Source of the DNA: a virus
Taxonomy: Duplodnaviria; Caudoviricetes
Strand: one strand, 5' to 3'
DNA: 64,000 bases
Virus record (IMG/VR): IMGVR_UViG_2821042281_000001
Coordinates: 1,161 to 65,160 of that record
Position 1 is the stretch's first letter; each line of letters begins with the position of its first letter. The position numbers and the translations under genes are program-made. Below, in pieces: positions 4,818 to 59,258 of this stretch. The notes beneath the pieces are model-generated. The model searched no databases. It was given only the letters and a program-made list of their open reading frames with translations, and was not told the origin of the DNA.

Positions 4818-4872
4818 ATTTCTCTCCTCATGTTGGTGGTGAAAGCGCCGCTTGGTGGGCGGCGCGGGTTGG

Positions 4873-5178
4873 TTATTCTTCGTACTCATAATAGTAATCA
4901 TCAGCACGGCCAGTATCTCTGTCCGGAATTATGCGGCTGCGGATGTGCTTACTCGAGGCGGCTGCTGCAATAATCTCTTCTTCCGTCAAATGTAGCCGAG
5001 CAACAAGATGGGTTGTAGTTCTTCGCCCTCGGCTGCCGGGAACGTCCTTTGCATCCTTGAGATACTTTTCTAGCTTGCGCCTATTCGACCGACTTTTGAT
5101 TTTTTTCTTTGCAGCCAATATCACAGTTAGTATTACCGCCAAAATTCCGGCGATTGCCCCCAAATCTCCAATACTTGC
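4873..5178 (-). CDS. Membrane-anchored moron protein
   Basis: N-terminal TM, AT-rich codons. Confidence 0.55.
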   Translation of the reverse strand, partial: ASIGDLGAIAGILAVILTVILAAKKKIKSRSNRRKLEKYLKDAKDVPGSRGRRTTTHLVARLHLTEEEIIAAAASSKHIRSRIIPDRDTGRADDYYYEYEE

Positions 5179-5222
5179 CATACTACCCCTCCCCACCGCA
5201 CTAACAGCGTAGTTTCGCTATA

Positions 5223-6515
5223 CTAGGCCACCCTCCTCTCGCTCGCCACATTATCATTCGCGGCCACGGGCACACGCGCAGCGCCCTTGACCATCGCCGG
5301 CGTCATCCTGTCCCTGGCAACTTCGCCGTATTCTTTGTGATACGTAATACGCTTGGCTGACCTGCCGGACAGCCAGCCGCCGCTTGCGGCATAGTCATCC
5401 TTGGCGGCAAGCGTTTCGTGGCGCTCGACATACATCAGGTTTGTCTTGATGCCTTCGTCGGAATGCTTATGGCCAATGTGGCAGTAGGCCGACAAACTCA
5501 GGCCGTATTCTTTGCGGAACAGGCCAGCCATCGTCACGTCGACGTTGTTGATAGTCCGCTTGTCGCCGTGATGGTAAAACAGCGCTGTCTTGCCCCACGA
5601 GTAGACGTGGTAGTGCATCGGTGAGTTGTCAACGCTTATGCGAGGCTCGTGCTCGTACATGGCCGCGAGCATCTCACGCAGCCATGCCGACGATGCCGGA
5701 TCATGATTGCCGGACGCCATAATAACGTGAACATGCTGGTGCTTCTGCAGAAGCATGTCGATGATGCGCCGGACTGTGCGGATGACGACGCGAATAACCT
5801 TCTGCAAGCGGCTATCCGCGTCTAGGACGTGCCTATGAGCAGGCGTAACGCTTTCGAGGCTATCATGATGCATCAGATCACCCAACTGGGCCAGCACAGC
5901 CGTGTGCGCTTGCGGGGCGGCGGCTACGGCTGCAGCGAACCAGTCCAGTAGCAACTGCTCTGCAATGCGAAGATCGTAATCATCTCCCGTTTCTTCACGC
6001 CATGCCAGCATACCGAAGTGACTGTCTGTCACGACGAACTGGTTAAGTAGTTCGGACGCAACATGCGCAGGAGGAGGCGTAATCGTGACGCGCGGTAGGC
6101 TTTCGGACAGCGCTGCAACAGTTGCATCCAGAATGGCGCGCTGCTGTTGTACATCAGCCCGCTCCATAATGTGCTGAGTAATCACCCGGCCTTCGGCATT
6201 CACGAGCGTCGTCTTGCCTTTGACAGCAAGGCCTGCAGTCGGCTCATAAACTGGACCAGCCTCTTTCGTCTGGCGCACGTAAGTGCCGTTCGGCGTCTCG
6301 GTCAGGCTTTTGATCGCATAGCCGGGCAATGTCGGTGACGGACCCAGCAGCCCAATCTCAGCGGCCCGCTTAATGCTGTCGTGAAATGCCGACTTCTTTA
6401 TGCCAAGCGCCGCCGCAGCCTTAACCAGCGTGCCGTGCTCGCGGTAAGCCTCCGCTCGGCGCAGGAGTTCTTCGTGTGAAAGGCGCGCACCCGCGCCCTG
6501 TCTGTCATGGGACAT
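5223..6515 (-). CDS. Calcineurin-like metallophosphoesterase with N-terminal HTH
   Basis: TDSHFG, LGDLMH, SGNHD, HHGD, IGHKH motifs; AAAALGIKKS HTH. Confidence 0.85.
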   Translation of the reverse strand: MSHDRQGAGARLSHEELLRRAEAYREHGTLVKAAAALGIKKSAFHDSIKRAAEIGLLGPSPTLPGYAIKSLTETPNGTYVRQTKEAGPVYEPTAGLAVKGKTTLVNAEGRVITQHIMERADVQQQRAILDATVAALSESLPRVTITPPPAHVASELLNQFVVTDSHFGMLAWREETGDDYDLRIAEQLLLDWFAAAVAAAPQAHTAVLAQLGDLMHHDSLESVTPAHRHVLDADSRLQKVIRVVIRTVRRIIDMLLQKHQHVHVIMASGNHDPASSAWLREMLAAMYEHEPRISVDNSPMHYHVYSWGKTALFYHHGDKRTINNVDVTMAGLFRKEYGLSLSAYCHIGHKHSDEGIKTNLMYVERHETLAAKDDYAASGGWLSGRSAKRITYHKEYGEVARDRMTPAMVKGAARVPVAANDNVASERRVA

Positions 6516-6693
6516 ACAGTCTCCTCGTGTTTGGTTTGGTAGCCGACTCGCGGCGCGGATTGGTCGTCCGATAGTGAAAAGAAAATGAGCCTCGAGATGA
6601 GATGTCAAGCGGGAATAAGAAAGACGCCGCGTAACCTTCAGGCAAGGTTCATCTCCCAGCTTCTGTTTTGAGGATCTGGAAAAGGAGTAACCA

Positions 6694-6873
6694 ATGAACG
6701 AAGACCGGAGGCGTGAGCGCCGTGGGCGCCCTAAAAATCCGATTGAAAAGCTGAGTATTTCCATTCGGTTGGAAGCGGAATTGGTGCGCCGGATACAAGC
6801 AACTGATCCCAACTGGCGTGAGAATATCGCCGATCTGGTCAGGCGGGAATTTCAGTTAGAAGATACGAAATGA
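6694..6873 (+). CDS. Orphan BrnA-antitoxin-like RHH protein (59 aa, not in ORF track)
   Basis: AAGGAG SD; RGRPKNPIEKLSISIRLEAELVRRIQATDPNWRENI. Confidence 0.7.
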   Translation: MNEDRRRERRGRPKNPIEKLSISIRLEAELVRRIQATDPNWRENIADLVRREFQLEDTK

Positions 6874-7075
6874 TCGGCGCCGTCCTGGTAACCGTGGTGA
6901 GCGGCGCAAAAGGAAGGATGGAATGTCTCGATAAATGTGGTGTTAATGGCCCATGAAAGATTGATTTCAGTAATAAATATTCACGTAAGAAACGATTTCC
7001 TAATTAAAATTTGGGCTGGAGTACGGCCGCCGACTCACCATAAATACTTAAAAATAAAACCACACGGGTGTTAAT

Positions 7076-7447
7076 ATGCGTGCGATTTTGGCCCTAGGCG
7101 CGTTACTTGTATCCAGTATTTATGTGGGCGCGGCAGAAAAACCCATCGAGTCGTACTACGCTCGATTAAGCGCCGAAGATCATTTCAATTCAGCGGGTGA
7201 GCGCCTAACTACAGCTGCAGCGATTATTCGGCAGGATCGAGCAAACTTCCATGTTTATGGGAAGCGCGATCGTGAAGATGATTCGGATTATACGTTTTCT
7301 GACAAAGCTAACCGCGCCCGACTCGAACGAATGATCGCCAACGGCCATTACCTCGGTGGTGCCGAAAGCGCGGTGCTGAACGGAACGCCGCTGATATATG
7401 TCGAAATTTACGAAGATTACGTCACGGTCTCAGTCCGGGACGATTGA
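7076..7447 (+). CDS. Exported protein moron
   Basis: Signal peptide; AT-rich upstream region. Confidence 0.75.
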   Translation: MRAILALGALLVSSIYVGAAEKPIESYYARLSAEDHFNSAGERLTTAAAIIRQDRANFHVYGKRDREDDSDYTFSDKANRARLERMIANGHYLGGAESAVLNGTPLIYVEIYEDYVTVSVRDD

Positions 7448-7602
7448 AAATCCGACATCGTACGGAAAGCGTTACTTGTGGCCCCACCGCCGCATTTATG
7501 ACGCCAGAATAAAAACAGTGGCCCGATAGCTGTCATATTTTTTTTGCCTGCTATCAACAACCACAATATTGCCGACGCCCTGCCTACCAGCTACAAGCGC
7601 GC

Positions 7603-37017: not shown

Positions 37018-37220
37018 CAAGCTGCCTCCTCATTCAGAAGATCCGACAGGTACACGCCGTCGACTGCATAGAACTCGAACTCTTCCCGGCGCTTAATTGC
37101 CGCCGTCTGCCAGCCTCTTAGTCCCAGGTCTCGTGCATATGGAGATGATGAATGCTGGTCTTCATCGATCGGGCAGTTGTCATTCGCGGCGAAATATTTG
37201 TCTTTCAGTTTCTGCTTCAT
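37017..37220 (-). CDS. Small hypothetical protein
   Basis: Coupled at both ends; AANDN..EEAA. Confidence 0.6.
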   Translation of the reverse strand: MKQKLKDKYFAANDNCPIDEDQHSSSPYARDLGLRGWQTAAIKRREEFEFYAVDGVYLSDLLNEEAA

Positions 37221-37726
37221 GCTGCTTTCCCCTTCTCTTTTGACAGCCACCCGAGAACAGCCGTAACGGCCTTCTCAGCGGCTTCTGTCGTCGTCGTGGC
37301 CCGAATGACCAGAACCCGGTAGCCAAGCCTCTCAAGCGCTGCATGGCGGTCTTTCTGGGCCGGCGACAGGCGTCCCTGCCCGACCTTGTTCTCGATCATC
37401 AGCAGACGCCCGTATTCGCCATAGATGCGAAGGTCCGGTTCGCCGCTGGTCATTCCTGTTGCGATTGCCTGAGCCTGGGCTCTTGGCCCGCGCTTGCTGG
37501 CGTTCATGTCACCCGCCAGCAGGAACTGGCGTTGGTACTGTGGCAGTCGGCGCAGGCTGGCAACTTGTGCCGCCTGTAATTCCCATTCGAGCGGCGGGGC
37601 TGGCTTGGTCGTCACCTTCCCGGCCTTTGTGGTGATCTTGACGCGAGCGCCGTTGATGCGGACGGTTTGTGTTTTGGTGGCGGTCGTGGTCGTAGATGAA
37701 GGCGCGCGTGTGCGGCTGCGTGCCAT
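37217..37726 (-). CDS. VRR-NUC domain nuclease
   Basis: GEPDL..IENK..GRLSPAQ..LERLGY. Confidence 0.88.
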   Translation of the reverse strand: MARSRTRAPSSTTTTATKTQTVRINGARVKITTKAGKVTTKPAPPLEWELQAAQVASLRRLPQYQRQFLLAGDMNASKRGPRAQAQAIATGMTSGEPDLRIYGEYGRLLMIENKVGQGRLSPAQKDRHAALERLGYRVLVIRATTTTEAAEKAVTAVLGWLSKEKGKAA

Positions 37727-37975
37727 GTGAGCTCCTCGTGTTTATTGCGGTATGCCGTTGGTAGCGGCGTGAATCGGATGGTAGTCCGATATAAAGATGG
37801 AATGAGTCTCGAACGAATGTGTCAAGCAGAAAGTGGTAGAGACGATGCGAGTGTGCAGTGTCACAATAAATGTGGTGTTAATGGACATGCAGGAAATGAG
37901 ATGCCGAAAAACGGCGGTCGCATTAATTGTCCATTCTGCAACCCCTTTATATACAGACCCCATGAATCTATCTAA

Positions 37976-42372: not shown

Positions 42373-42684
42373 TCAGAATGGAGCTTCACTTAGAGCCGAC
42401 CGCATCCCCCGCCCGCAACCTTCCCACGCGGCTTTCACCAGCATGCGTGCTTCGAGCTCGTCCATTTCCTTAAGGTCGGTTTTCTGTATGGACTGCAAGT
42501 ACTCCCCGACCGCCTCGACGCCGGTATCAAGCGCTTTTAACTCGTAAGGGTCGAGCCTCTTGCGGTGCCGGATATGCTCGGCAATGTCGGCGCATTCCTT
42601 GCATAGCCATCGGATCGGCTCGCGGTCTGCTTGCACGCCGAGGCCTACGGCGTGGCGGGCGCAGACGTGGCAGATGTCGGTCAT
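42373..42684 (-). CDS. Zinc-binding phage protein (DUF6511-type)
   Basis: CHVC..CKEC; AVGEYL. Confidence 0.7.
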   Translation of the reverse strand: MTDICHVCARHAVGLGVQADREPIRWLCKECADIAEHIRHRKRLDPYELKALDTGVEAVGEYLQSIQKTDLKEMDELEARMLVKAAWEGCGRGMRSALSEAPF

Positions 42685-43256
42685 GATGCCACCCTCCCCA
42701 GCAAATCCTGATTGTCGTTTGCGGCCACATACTTGCCCGCCTCATTCCCCCAAGCCGACCAACCCGGCCACGCTTGGCGCGCGAATAGTTCAAGATACGG
42801 GCCATCGACAAGCCGCTCGATGCGCTCATATTGCTCATCAGGCTTGCGACTATGCTCGCGGCGGGGTGCCTTGATCAGCGAACGCACGCCTTTGCTAAGA
42901 CGACGCGGCTTGCCACGTTTGAACAGATGGCAGATTTCAACTTCCTGTCGGGTCCAATAGCCCATTCCCATGCGCCCCTTGTCCCAGACAAAAGCCACGC
43001 TGACAGGACGGAATCCCCACGATGCAGCAACGTCGAAAGCTTCACGCTGCAGGTGTGAAACGGTCCACATGAACAGCAAACAGTCGCGGGCGCATACCTG
43101 TTCAACAGGTAGCGCCTGGATATCATCTAGCGACATCACGCTGTAAGGCTGGCGACCTCTAGCCGGCGCGACATTCTTTTTGCTGTAGGTTCTAAATGCC
43201 CATGGCGGGTCCGCAAGGACGCAGCCGAAAGGCCCGCTCGGTAGCGGTTCATTCAT
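42681..43256 (-). CDS. MT-A70 family adenine methyltransferase
   Basis: ADPPW, HSRKP, LELFAR, WGNE. Confidence 0.93.
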   Translation of the reverse strand: MNEPLPSGPFGCVLADPPWAFRTYSKKNVAPARGRQPYSVMSLDDIQALPVEQVCARDCLLFMWTVSHLQREAFDVAASWGFRPVSVAFVWDKGRMGMGYWTRQEVEICHLFKRGKPRRLSKGVRSLIKAPRREHSRKPDEQYERIERLVDGPYLELFARQAWPGWSAWGNEAGKYVAANDNQDLLGRVAS

Positions 43257-43315
43257 CCTCATCTCCTCGTGTATCGTGGTGGTAACCCACCAGTTGGTGG
43301 CTGGCGGGGTGTTGG

Positions 43316-43546: not shown

Positions 43547-43725
43547 AACACCTTCTCCATACAGGCGCGCATAACCCCGCGCAGTTCATAGAAGTTGCGT
43601 GCTTCGTCGATGGCATTCAGAAGGTACTCGCGGTCCACCTGCTTCCTTGCCTCGTCCAGCCCCATCCCTTGCTCCCGCAAGCGTTTGATGCACGGCACGT
43701 AATCCGCGGGATCTAGCTTCGCCAT
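43543..43725 (-). CDS. Small hypothetical protein
   Basis: Coupled start/stop. Confidence 0.6.
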   Translation of the reverse strand: MAKLDPADYVPCIKRLREQGMGLDEARKQVDREYLLNAIDEARNFYELRGVMRACMEKVL

Positions 43726-44258
43726 CACGCCGCCCTCACCGTAACGCTCGGCTGGCCTTCCCGCAGCACTGCACCCGGCACATCTTCCCCAGCATCCAGC
43801 GCCGCCTTTATCGCCGTCTTGTCTGGCTCGCGCTTCAGCTTCACAACGTTCTCGGGCAGCAGGCTTTCGTCCACATTCTCAACCCCGGCGCGCCCTTTGC
43901 TGACCGACAGAGTTGCTTCCGGCAGACTAACCTTGTTCAGGTTGGCGGCCTTCAACAGACGCAGCAACAAGGCCCGCATGGCGTCCTTGCGTCTGGCGTA
44001 TCGATCTTTGCGCGCGGCCAATTCCTTGGCGCGTTCGCCGATGGCCAGTACCATGCTGTTTGCATCGCGCTCAATTGCTACGATCTTGCCGAGCACGCGA
44101 TAGGCGTCTGTCTCGCCTTCGATTGTGTCGGTGCGCAGTTCCTCATCTTCGGCCAATTCTGGGTATGCCGCAACCAAGTCGGCGAATTCCCGTTCCAGAA
44201 CGGTGACATCATAGGCCAGATAGTTCTGTACTTTCGTGTTGTCGGCTTTGTCCGTCAT
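43725..44258 (-). CDS. Siphovirus Gp157-like protein
   Basis: DTIEGET..PDKTAIKAALDAGEDVPGA. Confidence 0.85.
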   Translation of the reverse strand: MTDKADNTKVQNYLAYDVTVLEREFADLVAAYPELAEDEELRTDTIEGETDAYRVLGKIVAIERDANSMVLAIGERAKELAARKDRYARRKDAMRALLLRLLKAANLNKVSLPEATLSVSKGRAGVENVDESLLPENVVKLKREPDKTAIKAALDAGEDVPGAVLREGQPSVTVRAA

Positions 44259-44422
44259 CATTGCTCCTCGTGTTTCGGTGCTTGGTTTTGGTAAGTTAAC
44301 ATGCCTCGCGGCGCATCCCGTTAATGGATTGGTTTATTTTGATAAACTTAATCCTACTGTTTTAGTGTAATTAATACTGGATTTAACTGTTGCATGCGAC
44401 GGTTGTTTATGTATATTCGCCC

Positions 44423-44486
44423 CACTCTTGGGAGGGAGTTAGACCGCCCAGGCGCGCACCGTCCGCTGCCGGGCGGTTTTTATTTT
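44423..44486 (+). ncRNA. Candidate ~65-nt sRNA with GGGAGGGAG
   Basis: TTGCAT-N16-TATATT at 44390-44417; terminator ACCGCCC/GGGCGGT plus T-tract; no ORF. Confidence 0.4.
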
Positions 44487-44515: not shown

Positions 44516-44544
44516 CTTGCAACGCATGAGTGGGCCGCCTATTT
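44516..44544 (+). promoter_or_regulatory. sigma70-type promoter of the cuckoo-type sRNA
   Basis: CTTGCA-N17-CTATTT, close to rhizobial CTTGAC-N17-CTATAT. Confidence 0.6.
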
Positions 44545-44550
44545 ACGCCT

Positions 44551-44668
44551 CGTCCGGTTTTACTCCTCCTCCCAGAAACCGGACCCTAAGCGCGGTACTC
44601 CTCCTCCCAACCGCGCTTTTCAGATCGGCCCGCTTCGCTCCTCCTCCCAATCGCGAAGCGGGCTTTTC
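44551..44668 (+). ncRNA. alpha-r14/'cuckoo'-type sRNA with three CUCCUCCC-loop hairpins
   Basis: Three perfect stems (9, 9, 11 bp), each with a TCCTCCTCCCA loop; last followed by Ts. Confidence 0.88.
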
Positions 44669-48613: not shown

Positions 48614-49651
48614 TTAGACCCTCATCGGCATCAGCACGCCAGTCCACTCGCCCTCACCTTTGATGACAGCCGGAGAACCTGCATCGCCGAGAGCAAAGCG
48701 CACATTTGGTTCATCCAACGCGCCAAGCATGTCGTTGACGTAGCGGGCGTTAAAGCCGATTTCCAAAGGCTCGCCTTCAAACTCAATCGAAACTTCGTCG
48801 CTGGCCTTGTCAGCCAGTATCAGCCGCAGCACATCGCCGACGGCGAATTTCACGGCGCGCGATTTGTCGTCCGCTACAGCGGCGACACGTTCGACCGCCT
48901 TCATAAGCGCCTGCCGGTCGACGGTAAGCACATTGCTATTACCGGATGGAATGACGCGCACATAATCAGGGAAAGTGCCGTCGATCAGCTTTGATGTAAT
49001 AACCGTTGAGCCAGACGTGACGCGCACCTTGTTTTGGGAGAGTTCAACCGTAACAGCGCCCTTCGGCAGCAACCCGACCAGCTTGCGCGGCAGGATCACG
49101 CCGTATTCTATGGTGCCTTCCGGCCCTGTGTTGCGCATCAGCCGGTGCCCGTCGGTTGCGACCGCAACCAAACGACCGTCGACAACATGCAGATAGACGC
49201 CATTGAGATAATAGCGGGTTTCTTCCGTCGAAATGCAGTGCACACACGGCGCCACAAGCGCAGCCAGATCGAGCTCGAGCGTCGTGTCGAACTTCCCGGC
49301 GCTGAACGATGGAAAGTCTTCGGCGGGCAAGACATCGAGCTTGTAACGGCTGCGACCAGACGCGACCGTAAGGCGGCCTTCATCCAAGGCAAGAGTAACG
49401 TCACCCGTTGCGCGCTTTGCAATGTCCGCAAGCATCTTGCCGGGCACTGTTACGCTACCCGGCTGGCAGTCGAGCACCGGTAGACTGGTCGTTATCTCCA
49501 CGTCCAGATCGGTCCCGGTCAGGCGCAGTTGGCCGTCCTCAACAGCCAAGAGTACGTTGGTGAGAATGGGGATTGTGTTTCGGCTTTCGATGGCACGGTT
49601 GACGGTAGCCAAGGCGTGCGCGAGCTGTGAGCGGTCAATGCTGACTCTCAT
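48614..49651 (-). CDS. dnaN: Phage-encoded DNA polymerase III beta sliding clamp
   Basis: TIPILTNVLL, GTDLD, ATDGHRL, DGTFPDY, VLMPMRV. Confidence 0.95.
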   Translation of the reverse strand: MRVSIDRSQLAHALATVNRAIESRNTIPILTNVLLAVEDGQLRLTGTDLDVEITTSLPVLDCQPGSVTVPGKMLADIAKRATGDVTLALDEGRLTVASGRSRYKLDVLPAEDFPSFSAGKFDTTLELDLAALVAPCVHCISTEETRYYLNGVYLHVVDGRLVAVATDGHRLMRNTGPEGTIEYGVILPRKLVGLLPKGAVTVELSQNKVRVTSGSTVITSKLIDGTFPDYVRVIPSGNSNVLTVDRQALMKAVERVAAVADDKSRAVKFAVGDVLRLILADKASDEVSIEFEGEPLEIGFNARYVNDMLGALDEPNVRFALGDAGSPAVIKGEGEWTGVLMPMRV

Positions 49652-49676
49652 CAAAGTCTCCTCGTGTGAAGGTTGG

Positions 49677-50093
49677 TTAGTGGCGGTTCTTGGTGAGTCC
49701 GCCAGCGTCGCCACGAAAATCCACGTCTGGCAATATCGACTGCGGCTTGAAGATAACGCGATAGTGGTAGGCGCTCACGTCGGCGCTTTCCAACTGCTCG
49801 ACGAACGCGCTCGTGTTGTCGGACAGCACGAGCGTATGACGCTTGTACGCGCTCGGGCCGGTTTTGCAGATCACATTGAATGCCGTGCCGCCAGAATTCA
49901 GGTCCATGGAGCAGCGGCCTTCTATCGTCAGCATGTAGCTGTCGGTGATACCGTTATAGAAAACCACACGACGGCTGATTTCGAAGTTATCAGCGGCTCG
50001 CTTGATGTTTTCATTGGCCACATTCGCGTCGCTGTTGCAGCCGGCCAGCAAGGCAAGGGCGAGTGCGCCCGCAAGCATCTTCAGCTTGTTCAT
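49677..50093 (-). CDS. Phage lipoprotein
   Basis: Lipobox LAGC; RRVVFYNGITD..IEGRCS. Confidence 0.85.
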   Translation of the reverse strand: MNKLKMLAGALALALLAGCNSDANVANENIKRAADNFEISRRVVFYNGITDSYMLTIEGRCSMDLNSGGTAFNVICKTGPSAYKRHTLVLSDNTSAFVEQLESADVSAYHYRVIFKPQSILPDVDFRGDAGGLTKNRH

Positions 50094-50150
50094 CAAAGTC
50101 TCCTCGTGTTCGGTGGTAGAAGGCGCGGTTGGTGGCCCCGCCTGTTGGGT

Positions 50151-50336
50151 TTAGGCGGCCTTCCGGGCCTTAATCGCTTCATCAGCGAGCAGGCACAGCG
50201 CCATCGCCATATCGGTGTTCATCTGTACTTTGGACCGTTCATATTGACGTGCAACGTCAGTCAATCCGATGACTTCCCCTAGCCCGCCAGTTTCCAGATA
50301 TGCCGTTGCTTCCGCCACATCGTATTCATAAGCCAT
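50151..50336 (-). CDS. Small hypothetical protein
   Basis: ACACGAGGAG leader; ends KAA. Confidence 0.6.
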   Translation of the reverse strand: MAYEYDVAEATAYLETGGLGEVIGLTDVARQYERSKVQMNTDMAMALCLLADEAIKARKAA

Positions 50337-50405
50337 GCGCATCTCCTCGTGTTTGGTTCGGTACGGTGGTTGCTACCGGCGCTTTCGCGCCAGTAGCGGG
50401 TTGGC

Positions 50406-50963
50406 TTAGCCCCAAGGGCGCTTCTTTTGCCCGCCTGCCGCAGCAGCCGCCGGTGCCGGCTTGTTGCTGTTAGCCGCGGCCGGTCGGTTGTCATTGGCCG
50501 GACGGGCCTGCGCTGCAGGCTGGTTGGCGTCGATTGAAGGCTGGGGGACGTTGCCCTCATCGGGGAAGTAGTACTTCTTGATCTCGGCGCGAGCCGGGTA
50601 TTGGCCGTCCTTGGAAGGCTTTCCGAGACCAATCTTTGCCGTAAACGCCTTGAAGTGCAGTTCTTCGGAATCCTCGACTTCCGAGACGCCGATCGCTCGG
50701 CAAAGGCTCGCGAACTGACGCTGGCCGATCTCTTGCGCCTGCGCGTTCTTGTGTTCCAGATTGTAGAAATTGAAGACCTTGCGGCCCTTGTATTCCTCGG
50801 GGCGAAGAACCGTCATCGTTGTCTTGAGGCCGGTTCCGTTCGCGCCTTCCTTGACCTCCGACGCCTCGATTTCCAGTTCATAGTCGCCGTTCGGCAGCTC
50901 TTCGTAGTCCCGCTGCTCCGTATCGTGAGCAGTCGCATCAAATCTGCTGGCTAGTTTTGCCAT
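50406..50963 (-). CDS. DUF669-type ssDNA-binding protein
   Basis: LPNGDYELEI..YKGRKVF; disordered tail ending PWG. Confidence 0.85.
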   Translation of the reverse strand: MAKLASRFDATAHDTEQRDYEELPNGDYELEIEASEVKEGANGTGLKTTMTVLRPEEYKGRKVFNFYNLEHKNAQAQEIGQRQFASLCRAIGVSEVEDSEELHFKAFTAKIGLGKPSKDGQYPARAEIKKYYFPDEGNVPQPSIDANQPAAQARPANDNRPAAANSNKPAPAAAAAGGQKKRPWG

Positions 50964-51006
50964 TTGTCATTTCCTCGTGTTGTTGGTGGTGTGGTAACGG
51001 CGAGGT

Positions 51007-51249
51007 TTAAGCCTTCGCCCGATGGATAGCCGGGCGGAAGAACCCGCCGATGAAACCGAGCGAAGCGCCGATCTGCCACATCGCAAGGCCTGCCGCGTTG
51101 ATGCCAACCGCAGCAAGGAACGCATGGATCGTTTCTGCGAAAAACAGGCCCACGACCCAGCCGACGAACGCGCCACCGAGAACGCCGATGAGCGGTGCGA
51201 AGAAGAGGATGGCTGCGGCAGTGACGATGATAGTAGATAATTTTTCCAT
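51007..51249 (-). CDS. Small membrane protein
   Basis: Hydrophobic; GASLGFIGGFF. Confidence 0.7.
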   Translation of the reverse strand: MEKLSTIIVTAAAILFFAPLIGVLGGAFVGWVVGLFFAETIHAFLAAVGINAAGLAMWQIGASLGFIGGFFRPAIHRAKA

Positions 51250-52034
51250 CAAGCCGCCTCCCTCTGGTCATTGTCGTTCGCAACCGGCCAGAACTTGGCA
51301 ATGTCGGCAAACCCCTGCCCTTTGCGGTAAACGACACTGTCGGGCATCGAATAACGGTTCTTGGCGTTGAACCCCGCCGCCTCGTTGAAGTGCACCTGGC
51401 GCTCCTTCCCGCCCTCGGCGTGGCTAACCTTCGTCTGGCGCGCCACTTCCTTTTCCTTGATGGAGATGCGGTAATTCATGAACGCAACAACATCGGACTT
51501 CTCACGCACCAGGGCATTGGCCCGCTTGTGCAGCTTGGGCTGGTATCGACTGTATGGATCTGTCGTCGGGCTGTCGAAGCGCACGATCTCGGGGTGGGCC
51601 AGCATGACGACATACATGCCCGCTCGGGATAGCGCCGACACGGCGGCCATCAGTTCGTTCCATTCGGTATCAGCTTCCACGTAGCCTTTGCCGAACCCAG
51701 CATCCTCGATGCCATTGATGCCAAGGCGGGCAGCGGTCGCACGCCAAACAAGCGGTTCCAGCCCATCGAGGCTGTCGATAATCACGGTGCGCCGGTCGTG
51801 CTCTTCGGTCAGCAGTTCGCCGATGACGTTTAGCAGATCGTCGAAGGATTCAATCGTGCCAGGAGTTGCCATTTCGATATCAGACGGCGGGCGCTCACCT
51901 TCGGTTGCTAGATAGATCGGGTCCGGGAATTCTGCCGCGAGCGACGTCTTGCCGATGCCGTCGACGCCGTAGAGAAGGATCACAGGCGGATCGTTTCTCT
52001 TGGTCGACTTGAGGCTTGAAAGAGATAGAGCCAT
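51249..52034 (-). CDS. AAA_24/Sak4-like recombination ATPase
   Basis: GVDGIGKT, IIDSLD, AKNRY. Confidence 0.9.
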   Translation of the reverse strand: MALSLSSLKSTKRNDPPVILLYGVDGIGKTSLAAEFPDPIYLATEGERPPSDIEMATPGTIESFDDLLNVIGELLTEEHDRRTVIIDSLDGLEPLVWRATAARLGINGIEDAGFGKGYVEADTEWNELMAAVSALSRAGMYVVMLAHPEIVRFDSPTTDPYSRYQPKLHKRANALVREKSDVVAFMNYRISIKEKEVARQTKVSHAEGGKERQVHFNEAAGFNAKNRYSMPDSVVYRKGQGFADIAKFWPVANDNDQREAA

Positions 52035-52048
52035 AGGTCTCCTCGTGT

Positions 52049-53868: not shown

Positions 53869-54153
53869 CTAGTGGACTGTGCCTGTATATGGACCGTCCA
53901 GAATGGTTATGCGGGGCAGCGAGACATAGATGTCCATGCAACCTCCCGAATAACCGCCGTTATAAGTTGTGCGGCGCACAACGGTCTTCTCTGTTGGCTC
54001 TGGCGCCGGGAGCGTGGGCGATCTTTCCGAAAGCAGCGACCAGGCGTGCCCTCTTGTGATCCCCATCAATTCCGCGATCTGCCCAAATGACGCGCCCTTC
54101 TTACGGTGCGCGGCGGCAGTTGCCTGCAGTTCGTGCCTTGATGAATGCTGCAT
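53869..54153 (-). CDS. HTH DNA-binding protein
   Basis: GASFGQIAELMGITRG. Confidence 0.75.
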   Translation of the reverse strand: MQHSSRHELQATAAAHRKKGASFGQIAELMGITRGHAWSLLSERSPTLPAPEPTEKTVVRRTTYNGGYSGGCMDIYVSLPRITILDGPYTGTVH

Positions 54154-54336
54154 GTCTCCTCGTGTGTGGTTGGTGGTGGTTGACAAGTGCCGTGTCTAAC
54201 GGCATCTGTCTGGTCGCGCGGGGTGGTACCTGCGAAGGAAATCGCGGCGTAGAAGCGGCTTCGGCCCTCCTCGTGTTAACCGCGACGTACGGGCAGGCTG
54301 GGGTAACGGGTGGTGCCGACCCATAACAGCCTGCTT

Positions 54337-55179
54337 TTAATTGGCCGTCTTATACTGCGACCAGATAATCGCGGCGAATTCCTGCCGATCAGTTTCGTCT
54401 AGCGCGGCCCATGCATCCCAGAACGCTTGACGCTTTCTGTCTTTGTTTGATGCCACTGCTTTTGCGGCGCCCTCGGCAATAATCTCAAGTGCCTTATCGG
54501 CGGTTATTGGCTTGGGCTCCGGCGCTGGGCGTGCGCTGACCTTTTCGCCCCGCTCTGCTCGGCTGATAAGGTTTTCGCGTTCTTCGTCAGGCAGACCAAT
54601 GAGCGCATCCATTTCGACGCCCTTGTCTAGGCTAGTGCCCACGATGCGTTGAATGTCATGGCCGAGTTTTTCGGCGCGAGATATTTTTTGGGCTATTTGT
54701 GATTTGCCATTTCCTGTCAAAGAAGCAATCTCACGCGCAAAGTCACCCGTTTTTGGGCGCCCCATACTTTTGTCCGAATTCCGGACAAAAGTCTCTCTGC
54801 GCATTTCTTCCCAAATAGGCTTCCGCCGAGCAATGTGCGATGCCTCTTCGGCTGGCGACAGTTCCGAACGGGCCAGATTCTCGTCGATTTCCATGAGCTC
54901 GGCATGAAGATCGTCAACGTCATGAACGACGCATTCTACATATTCTTCGCCGTTCATTTTGAGTGCCGCTAAGCGGTGACGGCCATAAATCAAAACCGCC
55001 ACCCCATCGCATAACTCTCCGTCATCCATGACGATTTCGTCACGGATACAGACCGCCGGCGGGTTCATTAGTCCGACTTCGGCAATGCTCTTCGCAATCT
55101 CTGCAACTTTAGCTCCATCAGCATTACGATGGCGATTGCCGATAAATATGTCGTCAATGAATAACCGCCGACGTTCCAT
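54337..55179 (-). CDS. ParB/Srx N-terminal domain protein
   Basis: SIAEVGLMNP..YGRHRLAA..EIDENLARSELS. Confidence 0.88.
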   Translation of the reverse strand: MERRRLFIDDIFIGNRHRNADGAKVAEIAKSIAEVGLMNPPAVCIRDEIVMDDGELCDGVAVLIYGRHRLAALKMNGEEYVECVVHDVDDLHAELMEIDENLARSELSPAEEASHIARRKPIWEEMRRETFVRNSDKSMGRPKTGDFAREIASLTGNGKSQIAQKISRAEKLGHDIQRIVGTSLDKGVEMDALIGLPDEERENLISRAERGEKVSARPAPEPKPITADKALEIIAEGAAKAVASNKDRKRQAFWDAWAALDETDRQEFAAIIWSQYKTAN

Positions 55180-55181: not shown

Positions 55182-56285
55182 TCAGATCACCTCAGGCAAA
55201 GATGCGGGGGATGTGGCAACGGCCAGGGATCGGCCTGCGCGCCAGATCAGGAAGTGATGCACGATCCCACGTGTCCACTGCTGGCGTGTCCACTTGACTG
55301 TCTTTTCGCGCAAAGCCTCGCGAAGCGTATAAATTGGGTTACGACGCTTTAGCATCTCACCAGTGCGGAAGGCGGTGAAGAAATGACGGATATCATCTTC
55401 ATTAGCGCCCAAGGAAAGAAGGTGGAGCGCGGCGACACCTGGTGCAGCAGACCCAAGTCCCTTCTGTGGATTTCCGATAAGGGAATTGGCAAGAACGATG
55501 TGCTCTTGGTTCTCGAAATAATAGTCCTGCGCTTCTGCAGGTGTAGCCGAGCGACCATTGTACATCTCGAACGCAAGGTTTGAGATAGCGGACATATGCA
55601 CAGCGTTAGGAATGCTTGCGATATTCAACCGATCAACGCCGGTGCGCTTGCGACCGATATTAACGGTGCGCATCGATTCCTTGGTGACGCCGTACGAGAC
55701 GACCGATTCAATTGGCTGGCCAGTCAGCAAGACGCCGAAAGTGCGATGCTGACCATCGTTCACCGTGCCGTCCTGACATACAACGATTGACTCGCCGTTT
55801 AGATCAAAGCGATGGGTTGCGATATCTCGCATAATAGCGGCAAGGTTGGCGGCATTAACGCGGCGGTTGCCGATGTTGTGCATGAGTAGGATCTGCGCTC
55901 GTTCTGGCGAAATGATATGCACATTGGCGCGAGCATCGCCATCGCGAACAAGGCGCTGATGCCATTCCGATGCCTTGGTGAATTCTGGCGATTTGCCATA
56001 GATGAAGAAACCAGTTACCTGCCCCACGTTGATCAGGCGAGCAGCAAGGCGGGCAGCGTCTTCAAACTTTCCTTCACGTACCAGGCGGAACACCTTGTCG
56101 TGTTCGGTTTCTTCAACCGCAACGAGACGTGTTGCAGCTACCTTAGGCGCATCTTCAAGAATACGCGGTTTGGCAACCGCTGCAGGTTTATGAAACAGCG
56201 CTTCCGCACGAGCCCGTTCTGGCGTGTATCTCTTGCTGCGGGTCGTTACAGGGATTTCTCGGCCTCTGGCCTGTACAATCTGCAT
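55182..56285 (-). CDS. ParB-like DGQHR-motif protein
   Basis: NRRV..NGESIV..DGQHR. Confidence 0.8.
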   Translation of the reverse strand: MQIVQARGREIPVTTRSKRYTPERARAEALFHKPAAVAKPRILEDAPKVAATRLVAVEETEHDKVFRLVREGKFEDAARLAARLINVGQVTGFFIYGKSPEFTKASEWHQRLVRDGDARANVHIISPERAQILLMHNIGNRRVNAANLAAIMRDIATHRFDLNGESIVVCQDGTVNDGQHRTFGVLLTGQPIESVVSYGVTKESMRTVNIGRKRTGVDRLNIASIPNAVHMSAISNLAFEMYNGRSATPAEAQDYYFENQEHIVLANSLIGNPQKGLGSAAPGVAALHLLSLGANEDDIRHFFTAFRTGEMLKRRNPIYTLREALREKTVKWTRQQWTRGIVHHFLIWRAGRSLAVATSPASLPEVI

Positions 56286-56318
56286 GTCATTCTCCTCATG
56301 GTTGTGTTTCAATTTTCA

Positions 56319-56623
56319 GCATGCTTATGTGTAGACGTCGGTGGGGAGCAAATAGCCACTCTGCAGCTTCGGCTGTTCTCATGTAGGGCAAGCGGCGCGT
56401 TACTGCGTTCGCTGAGAGGCGGCTTTAACCGTCAGAGCGTGGAGGTATTGGCTTATGCTGAAACCTAAGTTGGTCGCAGTTCGTGCTTATGTGCGTCTGC
56501 GATTTGGCCGCCTTGAGCATGTGTGTGCTCATTGGCGGTCGTGGCCGGGACAACTGGCCTTCGATTTCTAGGCTGGCATTACAAACCAGCTCAATCCCCA
56601 CCGACGCCTGCTAATAAGCATGC
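56319..56623. repeat. 29-bp imperfect inverted repeat (56319-56347 / 56595-56623) enclosing a small ORF
   Basis: GCATGCTTAT..CGTCGGTGGGGA vs TCCCCACCGACG..ATAAGCATGC. Confidence 0.85.
56455..56571 (+). CDS. 38-aa basic peptide ending QLAFDF (not in ORF track)
   Basis: GGAGGT SD; MLKPKLVAVRAYVRLRFGRLEHVCAHWRSWPGQLAFDF. Confidence 0.65.
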   Translation: MLKPKLVAVRAYVRLRFGRLEHVCAHWRSWPGQLAFDF

Positions 56624-56668
56624 GTCGCGCGCCACTAGCCATCTCAGGCTAGCAGCGTCCCTATTGTC

Positions 56669-56710
56669 CTACGGCGGTCGGTTGTCATTGTCTGCGGGTC
56701 TGGGGGCCAT
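56669..56710 (-). CDS. 13-aa mini-ORF MAPRPADNDNRPP, first ORF after the leftward promoter
   Basis: ACACGAGGAG at 56717-56726, 6 nt from ATG. Confidence 0.45.
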   Translation of the reverse strand: MAPRPADNDNRPP

Positions 56711-56847
56711 CTTCATCTCCTCGTGTTTTCTGGTCGGTCAGCCTTGGGTTGGTACTATCTGTCCGGTCGCGGAAGCTCCGGCTTCTCTTTGTGCAACTCA
56801 TTCTCCTTTTCTGTGCTCCGGTCTTCTTTGGGCCGGTTGATGGTTGG

Positions 56848-56944
56848 AATATATTGGGATTTATCCCATCTGTCAATGTGATTTTTCCCATTTTTGCAAA
56901 TAGGTACAAAAAATGCCGCAAACGCGGCATTGTGATTTATCACT
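56848..56944 (-). promoter_or_regulatory. Leftward promoter with three operators
   Basis: TTGACA-N17-TATATT (56876-56848); TGGGATTTATCCCA 56855, TGTGATTTTTCCCA 56877, TGTGATTTATCACT 56931. Confidence 0.85.
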
Positions 56945-56953
56945 ATAGAAGTG

Positions 56954-57568
56954 TCAGATCCGTATCCGTCGAGCCTGTCGAGGCGGCACGATAGATTCAA
57001 TGTCAGCAGCCCAAATGACCTCTTGATCGCGCATGGTTGGGCCATTCAGTGATTCCAGATCATAAAGACCTGGTCGAGACCCGCGCGTCAGCCGCTTCAA
57101 CAGCGCTCGACCATCGCTTAGCCCCACGACGACCATATCGCCAAGCATTTCGTCGGACGGGGCCAGCTTCTGATCACTATAAAAAATCAACGCCCCGTCT
57201 ACAAAAGTCCCCATGGAGTAACCCTGCACTTCGACGGCTACCGACTCTGGCCCTGCGCCGGGCGGGATAATGACATCCCCGAATCCACCGTCGCCATTTC
57301 CATAGATTATTTCACCGCTCGTATCAGCCCCGACCCGTCCTACCACTGAAGTTACTCCCGGTTCTTCCCCGATAAGATACCCGACAGTGGTATTCAGAAT
57401 GTTAGCGACCGACTTCAGAGAGTCGATTTTGGGAACGGCACCGCGATCCAAGATGTCGCGTACGAAAGTCTCGCCCATGCCGGCCTCCAGCGACAGGGCC
57501 TTCATACTCCAGCCGCCTTTTTTCATCGCGGCCCGAAATCGATCTTTGTCTATAGTGACCTGCTTCAT
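56954..57568 (-). CDS. cI: CI-like repressor (HTH plus S24 peptidase)
   Basis: Cro/CI HTH; VQGYSM, LLKRL; flanked by operators. Confidence 0.92.
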   Translation of the reverse strand: MKQVTIDKDRFRAAMKKGGWSMKALSLEAGMGETFVRDILDRGAVPKIDSLKSVANILNTTVGYLIGEEPGVTSVVGRVGADTSGEIIYGNGDGGFGDVIIPPGAGPESVAVEVQGYSMGTFVDGALIFYSDQKLAPSDEMLGDMVVVGLSDGRALLKRLTRGSRPGLYDLESLNGPTMRDQEVIWAADIESIVPPRQARRIRI

Positions 57569-57571
57569 AAA

Positions 57572-57647
57572 TGGGTTTTACCCCATCTCGTATTTTTCGT
57601 CACTTGGGAAATTTCCCATTGACTAATGTGATTTATCCCATTACATT
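57572..57647 (+). promoter_or_regulatory. Rightward promoter with three operators
   Basis: TTGACT-N17-TACATT (57619-57647); TGGGTTTTACCCCA 57572, TGGGAAATTTCCCA 57605, TGTGATTTATCCCA 57627. Confidence 0.85.
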
Positions 57648-57719
57648 TTGCACAACAGCACGAAGAAGCGACCGACGCCGATCTGCTGACCACCGACCAA
57701 AACACGAGGAGAAACCCAC

Positions 57720-57983
57720 ATGACCGCAAAAGCACCGAGAAGAAGCCCCAAAGCCCGTCCGAATGAAATCATCGGCGGCGGATTCTTTGTATTCCGCCGC
57801 GGCAAGAAGACTGGCCGCGTTGGCGTCTTCACCACCATGCCATACGAACACGGCTCGTTTGAGCAGGCCGTCGCAGAAGCTACCCGCTTAGCTGCCCTGT
57901 GCCCCGGCGAGATGTTCGAAGTTTTTCAGACGAGCGGCGCCGTAGCCTGCTGCACGCCGGTAGATCTGGCGGAGGCTGCGTAA
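57720..57983 (+). CDS. Early hypothetical protein
   Basis: ACACGAGGAG leader; EH.S...A..EA.RLA. Confidence 0.75.
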   Translation: MTAKAPRRSPKARPNEIIGGGFFVFRRGKKTGRVGVFTTMPYEHGSFEQAVAEATRLAALCPGEMFEVFQTSGAVACCTPVDLAEAA

Positions 57984-57984
57984 A

Positions 57985-58329
57985 ATGGAGCGGAACCCCA
58001 CCACCGAACTTGAGAATGCGCCTCTGTCGCGCGGACAAAAGAATATCGTCGATGCGCTGGCTGCTATTTATCCGCGCCGCATTTACATCAACGACCTCGT
58101 CGACAACGTCTATGCGTTCGATCCGAATGGCGGGCCAGACAACGCACATAATACAGTGCGAGTGCAAATCAGTCGCCTCCGCAAGCTCCTGCCCTCGTTT
58201 GGCTGGACCATCCCGATGAACCATCGGGGCGCGGGCAATCACGGGTTTTATCGCCTCGAGCCAGTAGCCGCCAACGACAACCGACCGGTAGCGGATCGGG
58301 CGGCACCAGACCGGAGGGCTGCAGCATGA
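57985..58329 (+). CDS. Stand-alone OmpR/PhoB-type winged-helix protein
   Basis: NTVRVQISRLRKLL..GFYRL. Confidence 0.8.
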   Translation: MERNPTTELENAPLSRGQKNIVDALAAIYPRRIYINDLVDNVYAFDPNGGPDNAHNTVRVQISRLRKLLPSFGWTIPMNHRGAGNHGFYRLEPVAANDNRPVADRAAPDRRAAA

Positions 58330-59258
58330 TCTCAAACAACGAAAGGGAGTTGCGGGCTGCCTTAAACCGTTCACTTTCCGATCAAGCTATGACGGCATTC
58401 CTTGCGATGCCTGATGATGAAAAGGCGCAGTTCGCCAACCGCTTCAATAATTTTTTCAGCAAAGTTTGCCGCGCTCAGTGGCGCATCGAAAGGGCTGCAG
58501 CATGAACCGCGCTTTGCTTGAACTGCTCGCCGACGACGAGTTCGAAACGGAAACCGACACACCGAAGGCCGGCAATGTCGAGCCTATGCGCCGACCTGAC
58601 TACAAGGCCAGGAAACATGGTCGCCCACAGCCGTGGCTACGTTATGCCGCCCGCGAAGCGGTCGAGATGACCGTCGTTGTAGCCTTTTGCGTTGCCGCGT
58701 GCAGCGTTGGGTTGGGGTTCTCCGCATGAGGCACGAAAGATAGCGACGGGGCGGTTAAGCCCCCGATCCTCCAAGAATGACAGCCCTTGCGCATCTAGCG
58801 CCACGGCTTTTTGCACCCACCAAAACACGAGGAGACCCTATGTCCAGATGCATCACACACGCCGTTATGGCGCCCATCCTGAACGCCGCCGAATTCCAGC
58901 AGCAAGGCACGACCGCTGCGCAGGTCCTGTCTATTTCAAAGGCAGTGCGCGCTCTTGGCTATCACTCCAAAGCTGAGACGCTACGCAACACCGCTTTCGA
59001 ACTGGCGCGCATTACTGGCGTTCGGTTCCGCTATGGGGCTCCGCGCCAGCGTCGCAATCCAGCCAATGACAACCGCCGTCGGCTGCGCGCAGCATGACTA
59101 CCGCCACCACCCGCCGCATTGACGCGGCATATCTCAACGCGCTGCGGCTTGGCCCGCAGCGTATCGGATATCCAGGCATCCCTTTGCCTGTTGCCTGTCG
59201 TCTGGCGGCAACCGGTAAGGCGCGAGTGCTTGGCAATGTCGTCGAGGTGCGCCCATGA
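58326..59258 (+). CDS. Four small early ORFs (58326-58505, 58502-58729, 58840-59097, 59094-59258)
   Basis: ATGA coupling; ACACGAGGAG leader at 58825. Confidence 0.6.

Follow-up and report, generated by a model that had tools for sequence, protein, structure and literature searches.

A leader tag of early genes in a temperate Ochrobactrum-group phage family, and a conserved complementary element predicted to encode an antisense RNA

The window analysed here is a 64,000-nt stretch of DNA (positions 1,161 to 65,160 of IMG/VR record IMGVR_UViG_2821042281_000001) from a temperate phage of Ochrobactrum/Brucella-group bacteria. One 10-nt sequence, ACACGAGGAG (hereafter the tag), occurs in it 13 times, 11 times on the minus strand and twice on the plus strand, against 0.12 copies by chance (sd 0.38, maximum 2), and 0 of 100 shuffles held 13 or more. 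It has the highest count of any 10-mer in the 65,160-bp record, and the next 10-mer unrelated to it has six copies. The 13 exact copies had first been listed in a sequence-only reading of this DNA, and we verified all of their coordinates and strands; the three variants listed with them are likewise genuine. The copies, and the genes that they lead, are as follows.

4824..4833, minus strand: variant ACATGAGGAG, leads a nucleoside deoxyribosyltransferase-like gene, 159 aa, 4338-4817
6521..6530, minus strand: tag, 5 nt 5' of the ATG of an SbcD-like DNA repair exonuclease gene, 5223-6515 (phrog_704, E 3.8e-122)
37732..37741, minus strand: tag, 5 nt 5' of the ATG of an endonuclease-like gene, 169 aa, 37217-37726
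43263..43272, minus strand: tag, leads a DNA methyltransferase gene, 42681-43256 (phrog_359)
44264..44273, minus strand: tag, leads a Mu Gam-like gene, 43725-44258 (phrog_253)
49658..49667, minus strand: tag, 6 nt 5' of the ATG of a sliding-clamp-like gene, 48614-49651 (phrog_947)
50100..50109, minus strand: tag, 6 nt 5' of the ATG of a lipoprotein-like gene, 138 aa, 49677-50093 (PF25682)
50343..50352, minus strand: tag, leads a 61-aa ORF, 50151-50336
50971..50980, minus strand: variant ACACGAGGAA, leads an SSB-like gene, 50406-50963
52039..52048, minus strand: tag, 4 nt 5' of the ATG of a Sak4-like annealing protein gene, 51249-52034 (phrog_124)
54156..54165, minus strand: tag, 2 nt 5' of the ATG of a 94-aa ORF with a weak helix-turn-helix match, 53869-54153
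54267..54276, minus strand: 'orphan' tag without a start codon; its plus-strand reading is the seed CUCCUCGUGU of a predicted antisense sRNA
56292..56301, minus strand: two-mismatch variant before the ATG at 56285, leads a 367-aa gene, 55182-56285
56717..56726, minus strand: tag, about 120 nt past the predicted early leftward start, leads an ORF of 13-15 codons, 56669-56710
57702..57711, plus strand: tag, 8 nt 5' of the ATG of the first rightward gene, 87 aa, 57720-57983
58825..58834, plus strand: tag, 5 nt 5' of the ATG of an 85-aa ORF, 58840-59097

In the window, 11 of the 13 copies stand 2-8 nt 5' of an ATG and lead ORFs of 61-430 aa; within 15 nt of the orphan copy at 54267 there is no ATG, GTG or TTG, and the short ORF led by the copy at 56717 is followed by about 380 nt free of genes. 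By PHROGs and Pfam matches the tagged genes are DNA-metabolism and small early genes, the first cistron of each divergent early operon among them, and the tag always lies in the sense orientation relative to its gene. Exact tags precede 9 of the 16 uncoupled starts in the leftward early operon and variants another 2 of the 16, as against 0 of 15 translationally coupled starts and 0 of 22 late starts, so that the proposal that the tag occurs only before non-structural genes is borne out. Its reported absence from the head-tail operon also holds, there being no copy between 6531 and 37731, a stretch that carries the large terminase, portal, protease, major head, tape measure and tail fibre genes. 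Two promoter-like sites of the early genes were read from the sequence:

56848..56876, minus strand: early leftward promoter-like TTGACA, 17 nt, TATATT, overlapped by operator-like repeats
57619..57647, plus strand: rightward promoter-like TTGACT, 17 nt, TACATT, 5' of the tag at 57702

Early regions of relatives were found in contigs from public RNA libraries, contigs that carry no end or strand information. Those of two studies end at 56826 and 56830, close to the predicted early leftward start, of which they give a weak hint.

The same placement is found among related phages. In a census of ORF-leading tags over 53 loci plus the window, 265 of 305 tags lead an ORF, and in 264 of these 265 the start is an ATG, 2-9 nt downstream. 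Exact tags number about 300 versus 60 copies with one mismatch, and the related prophage loci (about 21 kb) have 7-10 tags each, placed before 26 unrelated protein families. Because the distance to the ATG is fixed at 2-9 nt and the orientation is single, we rejected a DNA-level site such as a promoter, operator or methylase site.

The leaders share one layout. The upstream gene is followed by a small hairpin, next comes a C/A-only stretch that contains ACCACC or UACCACC boxes, and then the tag, 2-9 nt and the ATG. The upstream hairpin is present in most leaders, often with a CCACCAA loop, and there is no common 17-bp repeat. The C/A-rich run noted earlier is real: the 30 nt 5' of tags contain A at 0.29, C at 0.40, G at 0.18 and T at 0.13 (69% C+A), compared with A at 0.22 and C at 0.28 in the genome. 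Boxes of the ACCACC type occur in 7 of 12 tag leaders versus 3 of 69 other leaders (p 2e-5). Within the tag, GAGGAG is the Shine-Dalgarno element. The host 16S tail, taken from host sequence, reads ...GGATCACCTCCTTT, then CT, and against it GAGGAG forms five Watson-Crick pairs and one G.U pair, while ACAC falls opposite U, C and U and is unpaired. Neither ACAC nor the AC that often follows the tag can pair with the ribosome.

The tag belongs specifically to this phage family. Its counts in three host genomes are 14, 22 and 15, with nearly every copy in a prophage (a reversed control pattern gives 3, 5 and 2); in the first of them, G001, a single 52-kb prophage accounts for 10 of the 14 tags and a second copy of the complementary element described below for 1 more, with 3 for the reversed control. 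The sequence-only reading had asked whether the motif is equally common in host leaders, and it is not, since the tag is nearly absent from host DNA outside prophages. A search of seven distant clamp-gene loci for a repeated leader tag found none.

On the strand opposite to the orphan copy lies a predicted RNA element with the following parts.

54180..54208, plus strand: promoter-like TTGACA, 17 nt, CATCTG, 5' of the predicted sRNA
54213..54341, plus strand: predicted antisense sRNA of about 125 nt (covariation, strand bias, promoter-like box, terminator-like hairpin)
54220-54230, plus strand: GGUGGUA loop of SL1
54267-54279, plus strand: seed CUCCUCGUGUUAA, with AAGGAAA before it and GUACGG after it
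54308-54317, plus strand: inner GGUGGUG loop of the terminator hairpin, which has a T run (to 54342)

The tag and the leaders' ACCACC boxes have their complements in the sequence CUCCUCGUGUU and the two GGUGGU loops of this element, and a perfect complement to the seed, 10-11 nt long, is present in 12 of 12 tag leaders. For the pairing of sRNA and leaders we used exact-complement counts in place of RNAduplex, which with the whole sRNA gave long loop-filled duplexes and no separation (means of -49.4 for tag leaders and -46.3 for the rest). When a second complement of the tag was sought in the window, only the tag copies themselves were recovered.

The complementary element is conserved and it covaries. 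In the plus-strand consensus structure of the orphan region both partners change in 18 of 36 pairs, against 5.8 in shuffles (0 of 500 reach 18) and 3-6 in slid controls, and the wobble cells number 85 G.U on the plus strand versus 1 A.C. This pattern points to the plus strand as the one that would be read, opposite to the reading of the tag. A covariance model matches the window and all 31 of the close loci that reach far enough upstream; it matches 0 of 11 distant loci, and those 11 also lack the tag. The relatives are closely related to one another, and hence the co-occurrence of tag and element is not independent evidence. The TTGACA box is conserved in phages NV1.1.1 and 16-3, in 25 of 26 relatives and in the second copy of the element (L063), which lies in a host genome. 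In that copy the box is part of TTGACA-17-CATATG, the complement is 13 nt long, and a 9-bp stem runs into six T. In the window phage the -10 box (CATCTG) is poor, a simple promoter and terminator scan called neither feature for the predicted sRNA, and folding of the window's predicted sRNA alone is no better than that of shuffles (z -0.86). The CCCUCC part of the seed is engaged in an invariant helix of the predicted consensus structure. Six loci of relatives have seeds that end in GUGUGG or CGUGG while their leaders still read AAACAC, so the flanks do not covary within the family and pairing accounts everywhere for only CACGAGGAG (9 nt). In the Sinorhizobium phages NV1.1.1 and 16-3 a homologue of the element differs in its seed, and the leader tag differs to match: the seed is GUCUCCU and 19 leaders carry AGGAGAC. 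The SL1 loop there is UGUGGUG, with CCACA in 10 of 19 leaders versus 1 of 12 in the window phage; the SL1 loop of the window phage is GGUGGUA, and TACC[AC] is present in 7 of its 12 leaders versus 1 of 19. In 16-3 the element lies about 350 nt 3' of Pr, whose operon, according to the 16-3 annotation, runs through the orphan strand.

Taken with a confidence a little better than even, the reading that we favour from these sequence comparisons is that ACACGAGGAG is a start-associated sequence acting as a shared RNA operator for a predicted phage antisense sRNA. The tag leader would mark those early starts that lack translational coupling. The element at 54213-54341 would be transcribed from the plus strand as an antisense sRNA of about 125 nt, its seed and two GGUGGU loops would pair with the tag and CA boxes of the leaders, and this pairing may cover the ribosome-binding site and thereby repress the entire early set together, either as a second immunity layer in the lysogen or as an early-to-late switch. 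The flanking letters and CA boxes would then be kept because the leader doubles as an sRNA target. Among the functions first suggested for the tag, the best fit is a translational operator shared by an early regulon, given the fixed start distance, the sense-only orientation, the uncoupled early starts and the complementary element. The copy at 54267, previously taken for a leader without a start codon, is better read as the template of the predicted antisense RNA's seed. A broader 'tag and anti-tag' control, in which one antisense RNA would silence at least 12 early genes, the first cistrons of both early operons included, and whose logic may recur in 16-3 and may explain the start-associated sequences of Cluster K mycobacteriophages (below), is a possibility that we hold with somewhat less than even confidence.

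An account confined to translation in cis, which we judge unlikely, would treat the unstructured C/A leader and its 6-nt Shine-Dalgarno sequence as a cassette for strong independent initiation, and the orphan region as a regulatory leader on the sense strand ahead of the 94-aa gene, where the real ribosome site is sequestered by UUUCCUU with the orphan copy as a competitor. The sense strand of the orphan region does fold, and its consensus fold joins the invariant UUUCCUU to the GAGGAGA of the second copy, the real ribosome site, with U.G wobbles on the sense strand in the adjoining hairpin; self-pairing is impossible in the C/A-rich 30 nt, the tag is confined to uncoupled starts, and the leader AAA before CAC persists when the seed changes. 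Left unexplained, however, are the exactness of ACAC over about 300 copies that precede 26 gene families, the avoidance of the tag by late and host genes, the 85 G.U versus 1 A.C on the other strand of the body of the orphan region, and the different tag extension of the other lineage with its matching change in the element.

T4 RegA and RegB are models for proteins that bind or cut early mRNAs, and the tag could likewise be where a translational repressor or an endoribonuclease, from phage or host, acts. It is as sharp a 10-mer as a recognition site, is restricted to early genes, and retains its first A even in loci whose seed has no partner for that letter. Yet we found no RNA-binding or ribonuclease family in 20 early proteins by Pfam or 30 by PHROGs, many of them matchless, and this explanation, which we regard as distinctly improbable, leaves the complementary conserved element unaccounted for. 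The suggestion that the tag serves mainly as a short stretch of homology for module exchange among related phages, aided by their own Sak4, Gam and exonuclease genes, is very improbable: the window's strongest similarity breakpoint (36 ends) is exactly at the 49658 copy and genes upstream of the clamp gene differ between relatives, but breakpoints pile up similarly at untagged gene boundaries (42680, n=25; 46540, n=22; 48040, n=21; 58480, n=28), and recombination requires neither a fixed 2-9 nt to the ATG nor a single orientation.

Small phage antisense immunity RNAs such as P1/P7 c4, P4 CI and P22 sar use exposed segments to pair with ribosome-binding regions of the phage's own genes, each having one or two targets. 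Like the c4 and CI RNAs, the predicted sRNA has segments complementary to ribosome-binding regions, as judged from the 12 of 12 tag leaders; it differs in having a predicted target in at least 12 leaders across two divergent operons, and it has no Rfam match to such families. Searched with 54213-54341, Rfam gave no family at gathering score and none at E up to 10, and blastn of the element against phage records gave no matches. The window does hold a true member of RF02344 at 44548-44668 (plus strand; 81.2 bits, gathering 58.8), whose CUCCUC loops complement GAGGAG. This family (Alpha-r14, cuckoo, NfeR1, CcsR) is described as Rhizobiales small RNAs with C/U-rich anti-Shine-Dalgarno motifs and two to four hairpins with CCUCCUCCC loops (PMC4615179). 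The element at 54213-54341 does not match it, its seed reaching into ACAC and its loops being GGUGGU. Among close loci the ar14 gene is found in 20 of 42, compared with 31 of 31 for the element among loci covering that place. As sole partner of the tag ar14 was rejected, because it pairs with GAGGAG alone and is absent from about half of the relatives.

Start-associated sequences (SAS) were described in 2011 in Cluster K mycobacteriophages (Pope et al. 2011, PMC3203893); their role was still called unknown in 2024 (PMC11373665) and untested in 2025 (PMC12699233). SAS and the tag are alike in being short asymmetric repeats with a Shine-Dalgarno core at 11-19 copies per genome, lying a few nt 5' of mostly ATG starts of non-structural genes only, serving varied gene families, being nearly absent from the host, keeping conserved positions for which 16S rRNA offers no pairing, and including one odd copy away from gene starts. 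The Cluster K consensus GGGATAGGAGCCC is unrelated in sequence and belongs to a different host phylum, and the tag is thus an analogue and not a family member. Extended SAS, where the 2024 paper places promoters (PMC11373665), include 17-bp imperfect inverted repeats 5' of about half of the sites; these may have a counterpart in the small hairpins that precede most tag leaders, among which there is no shared 17-bp repeat. The window phage differs in having C/A-only ACCACC boxes in the leader as well, and in having a candidate partner, a complementary element with promoter- and terminator-like features. The only inverted SAS of the Cluster K phage Anaya falls, when the strand of the rightward genes is read, within the loop (10 nt) of a conserved hairpin.

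To the extent of the openly readable literature (subscription papers and supplements excluded), we found neither the tag nor the RNA described for phages of Ochrobactrum or of the 16-3 type. The SAS phenomenon is extended to another bacterial phylum, now with a concrete candidate partner that makes SAS function testable, by asking whether the anti-tag RNA is present and whether seed and tag changes compensate. If the proposal is true, a single RNA would let temperate phages gate a dozen genes post-transcriptionally, with a bearing on immunity, on cross-talk among prophages with related seeds, and on annotation, given that the predicted element is unannotated in both the window phage and 16-3.

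The window, bases 1161-65160 of a virus record of 65,160 bp, carries a temperate, siphovirus-type genome, in which a long leftward operon runs first through genes of DNA metabolism (ParB-like, Sak4, SSB, clamp, Cas4-like exonuclease, helicase, Gam, two methyltransferases and primase) and then through large terminase, portal, protease, major head, tape measure and tail fibre, and a rightward operon, short and made up of small genes, begins at 57720. Near-identical prophages were found in Brucella (formerly Ochrobactrum) pseudintermedia, B. daejeonensis, Ochrobactrum sp. and Falsochrobactrum, and also in 45 IMG/VR contigs. Among named phages, Sinorhizobium phage NV1.1.1 comes closest, at ~75% nucleotide identity in the head-gene region only. 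All 13 exact copies of ACACGAGGAG (the tag, a GAGGAG Shine-Dalgarno core joined to ACAC) listed by the sequence-only reading are present, where 0.12 would be expected, and this is the commonest 10-mer in the genome. Eleven copies are followed 2-8 nt downstream by an ATG that opens an ORF of 61-430 aa, the copy at 56717 precedes only an ORF of 13-15 codons, and the copy at 54267, described earlier as having no start codon, indeed leads no ORF. The C/A-rich run said to precede the copies is likewise real, C and A making up 69% of the 30 nt upstream.

Among the 16 uncoupled starts of the leftward early operon (at least 15 nt from the upstream gene), 9 have an exact tag, 2 a variant and 5 neither, and none of its 15 coupled starts (overlapping or abutting) is tagged. 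The reported absence from head-tail genes was borne out at all 22 late starts, and the tag thus marks independent initiation sites of early genes, including the first cistron of each of the two early operons. Features at the control region are as follows.

62645-64000, integrase
56954-57568, minus strand, CI-like repressor
57702, tag copy of the rightward operon, about 55 nt after a TTGACT-17-TACATT site
56717, tag copy about 120 nt after a TTGACA-17-TATATT site, followed by the short ORF (56669-56710, minus strand) and then by about 380 nt free of genes
56848-56876, minus strand, early leftward promoter-like site, read from the sequence

Operator-like repeats of the form G[GT]GA[AT]AAATC[AC]CA lie at 57627, 56931, 56877 and 56855. 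Contigs from RNA libraries of two studies end at 56826 and 56830, a weak hint of a possible 5' end of the early leftward transcript.

The tag is real, strongly selected and specific to the phage family. It was found in 46 of the 60 loci compared, with 7-10 copies per ~21 kb locus, and is missing from loci whose clamp genes share 47% identity or less, apart from a single copy in one of them (L046). Across 53 distinct loci and the window, 265 of the 305 copies with sufficient flank precede an ORF (at least 40 aa) at a spacing of 2-9 nt, 264 of these starting with ATG, and the proteins encoded fall into 26 unrelated families. Conservation does extend beyond the Shine-Dalgarno core, as had been proposed: about 300 copies are exact versus 60 with one mismatch, and ACAC stands directly before 291 of the 668 GAGGAG sequences in the close loci. 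Three host genomes (3.8-4.6 Mb) hold 14, 22 and 15 tag copies, compared with 3, 5 and 2 for a reversed control pattern, and because these host copies are few and nearly all clustered in prophages, the possibility that the motif is equally common in host leaders does not hold. The 3' end of host 16S rRNA reads ...GGATCACCTCCTTT, then CT, with which GAGGAG can form five Watson-Crick pairs and one G.U, whereas ACAC, opposite U, C and U, cannot pair. A protein partner of the tag is improbable; family scans of the early proteins gave no candidate, although most of the small ones match no family at all.

The copy at 54267 (minus strand) forms a pair with the copy at 54156, and in 26 loci two tag copies are likewise separated by 107-113 nt. 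The stretch between the ParB-like gene and a 94-aa ORF is conserved and covarying. On the plus strand it has a promoter-like box (TTGACA at 54180-54185, 17 nt, CATCTG), downstream of which are a body of ~125 nt, a long hairpin and then TTTTAATT. The consensus fold on this strand has 36 pairs, 18 of them changing on both sides, as against 5.8 in shuffles (0/500 reach 18) and 3-6 in slid controls. We refer to 54213-54341 (plus strand) as a predicted antisense sRNA, whose segments are, in order:

SL1 loop, GGGGUGGUACC
invariant segment, AAGGAAA
seed, CCCUCCUCGUGUUAA
GUACGG
terminator inner loop, GGGUGGUGCC

Read as plus strand, the paired cells of 20 distinct sequences contain 85 G.U and 1 A.C, a ratio that RNA from the opposite strand would reverse, and the wobble pattern thus points to the plus strand; 57 of the 85 G.U come from three near-invariant pairs, and the test leans towards the plus strand because the structure was chosen on it. 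One-sided changes within the covarying helices all run in the plus-strand direction. A hairpin beside the second tag copy, overlapping the putative promoter, has U.G wobbles on the sense strand, so that both strands may be structured, in different parts. Against the predicted gene, a simple scan called neither promoter nor terminator there, and the single sequence of the window folded no better than shuffles (z -0.86). The stretch 54213-54341 matched no Rfam family. None of the 26 relatives departs from the invariant heptamer at 54235-54241 (AAGGAAA on the plus strand, UUUCCUU when read as sense strand), which recurs as GGAAAG in NV1.1.1; in its sense-strand form it is able to pair with the true ribosome site, that of the 94-aa gene.

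A perfect complement to the seed of the predicted RNA, 10-11 nt long, is present in 12/12 tag leaders of the window, and a 6-mer of ACCACC type, complementary to both GGUGGU loops, occurs in 7/12 of them versus 3/69 other leaders (p 2e-5), two of these three being variant-tag leaders. In the consensus structure CCCUCC lies within a never-varying helix and GUGUUAA is unpaired, so that on the modelled fold a pairing toehold on AACAC is possible.

A covariance model of the element matched the window and 31/31 close loci (counted only where at least 6 kb upstream of the clamp gene was covered) and 0/11 distant loci, with CUCCUCGUG unchanged in all 32 sequences. Among 151 genomes of the host's order it occurs in the host genome G001 only, and there twice, once in the prophage and once as a divergent copy (L063):

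G001:C2:283243-283374, minus strand, L063, on host chromosome 2, outside the place of the prophage copy

In L063 there is TTGACA-17-CATATG, the seed is complementary to 13 nt (ACACGAGGAGACU), and a stem of 9 bp precedes a run of six T; its tag complement is longer and its terminator clearer than in the prophage copy. Through L063, a prophage or remnant could affect the early genes of another.

In NV1.1.1 the model has a weak match (14.9 bits, E 0.27) directly behind that phage's standard promoter box, sharing SL1, GGAAAG, GUACGG and GGGUGGUGCC and differing in its seed, GGUCUCCUGCC. Rhizobium phages 16-3 and AP-16-3 carry this stretch at 98% identity, in both cases unannotated:

NC_011103 36876-37066 (L064 2501-2691), homologous element of 16-3, on the strand of gene c, with Pr/p069 to one side and the overlapping ORFs p070 and p071 of the opposite strand to the other, ~350 nt downstream of annotated Pr and in antisense orientation to its operon

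Leaders of 19 NV1.1.1 genes read CACCAC..., 2-3 nt, AGGAGAC, 4-5 nt, ATG, the non-ribosomal extension being 3' of the Shine-Dalgarno and fitting GUCUCCU, the seed of this phage itself. The CA boxes change in step with the SL1 loops, TACC[AC] occurring in 7/12 leaders here versus 1/19 in NV1.1.1 (p 0.002) and CCACA in 1/12 versus 10/19 (p 0.02). As judged from sequence, RNA-RNA recognition finds its strongest support in this matched change of seed and leader across two lineages. A leader acting purely in cis appears unlikely. Counting against the reading, flanks within the Ochrobactrum family show no covariation: in six loci the seed continues as GUGUGG (L017, L025, L033) or CGUGG (L011, L019, L032), yet the leaders keep AAACAC, and pairing thus explains CACGAGGAG everywhere but neither the first A nor the A run in these six. 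In L011 and L019 the seed reaches instead into an AC often present after the tag. In NV1.1.1 the palindrome ACAAATTTGT also underlies nine promoter-like TTGACAAATTTGT boxes.

Our literature search found no description of the tag or element. Although unrelated in sequence, the tag shares the main descriptive properties of the start-associated sequences (SAS) of Cluster K mycobacteriophages, and is thus an analogue in another phylum; most tag leaders have a small hairpin upstream, with no common 17-bp inverted repeat. The role of SAS is described as unknown in PMC11373665 and as untested in PMC12699233. Mycobacteriophage Anaya has 16 SAS copies rightward and one inverted, in agreement with Pope et al. 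(PMC3203893):

L065 34850-34905 (record about 59849-59904), rightward strand, Anaya inverted-SAS hairpin

On that strand the inverted copy lies in a loop of 10 nt (CCUCCUAUCC), closed by a GCGCGG/CCGCGC stem that is itself enclosed by an outer stem of 11 bp (z -2.43), so that an RNA would display an anti-SAS sequence. Conservation of the region extends to 150 Cluster K records. Of six phages aligned, four have the identical loop, one has a variant and one a deletion of it, and the outer stem shows G.U pairs when read on the rightward strand. We regard this modelled anti-SAS hairpin as a lead, not a finding.

The window also encodes a true alpha-r14/cuckoo sRNA at 44548-44668 (plus strand; RF02344, 81.2 bits versus a gathering score of 58.8), with three ACUCCUCCUCCCA loops. 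Its gene is antisense to the early operon in the Gam-helicase gap, after a TTGCAA-17-TATTTA site (44517-44545), and is at the same place in 20/42 close loci. To our knowledge, cuckoo RNAs have not been reported from phages. Anti-Shine-Dalgarno sRNAs are known in Rhizobiales, and the accessible part of the cuckoo paper makes no mention of phage or prophage (PMC4615179). Just upstream, 44390-44486 (plus strand) comprises TTGCAT-16-TATATT, ~60 nt with GGGAGGGAG, and a hairpin with a T run (44444-44486). By its sequence it could be a second small RNA, with a G-rich stretch complementary to the ar14 loops.

The phage antisense RNAs c4, CI and sar cover a ribosome site and have one or two targets each. 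The RNA predicted here would be transcribed from a promoter of its own that lies within the early operon and reads the opposite strand, and it may act either in the lysogen or late in infection. Contact would start between the open C/A leader and the GGUGGU loops and GUGUU of the RNA, and the duplex would then spread across GAGGAG and exclude the ribosome; more speculatively, blocking a first cistron could also halt downstream transcription. We consider, with modest confidence, that the most likely meaning of the tag is a start-associated sequence doubling as the operator of a conserved predicted antisense sRNA.
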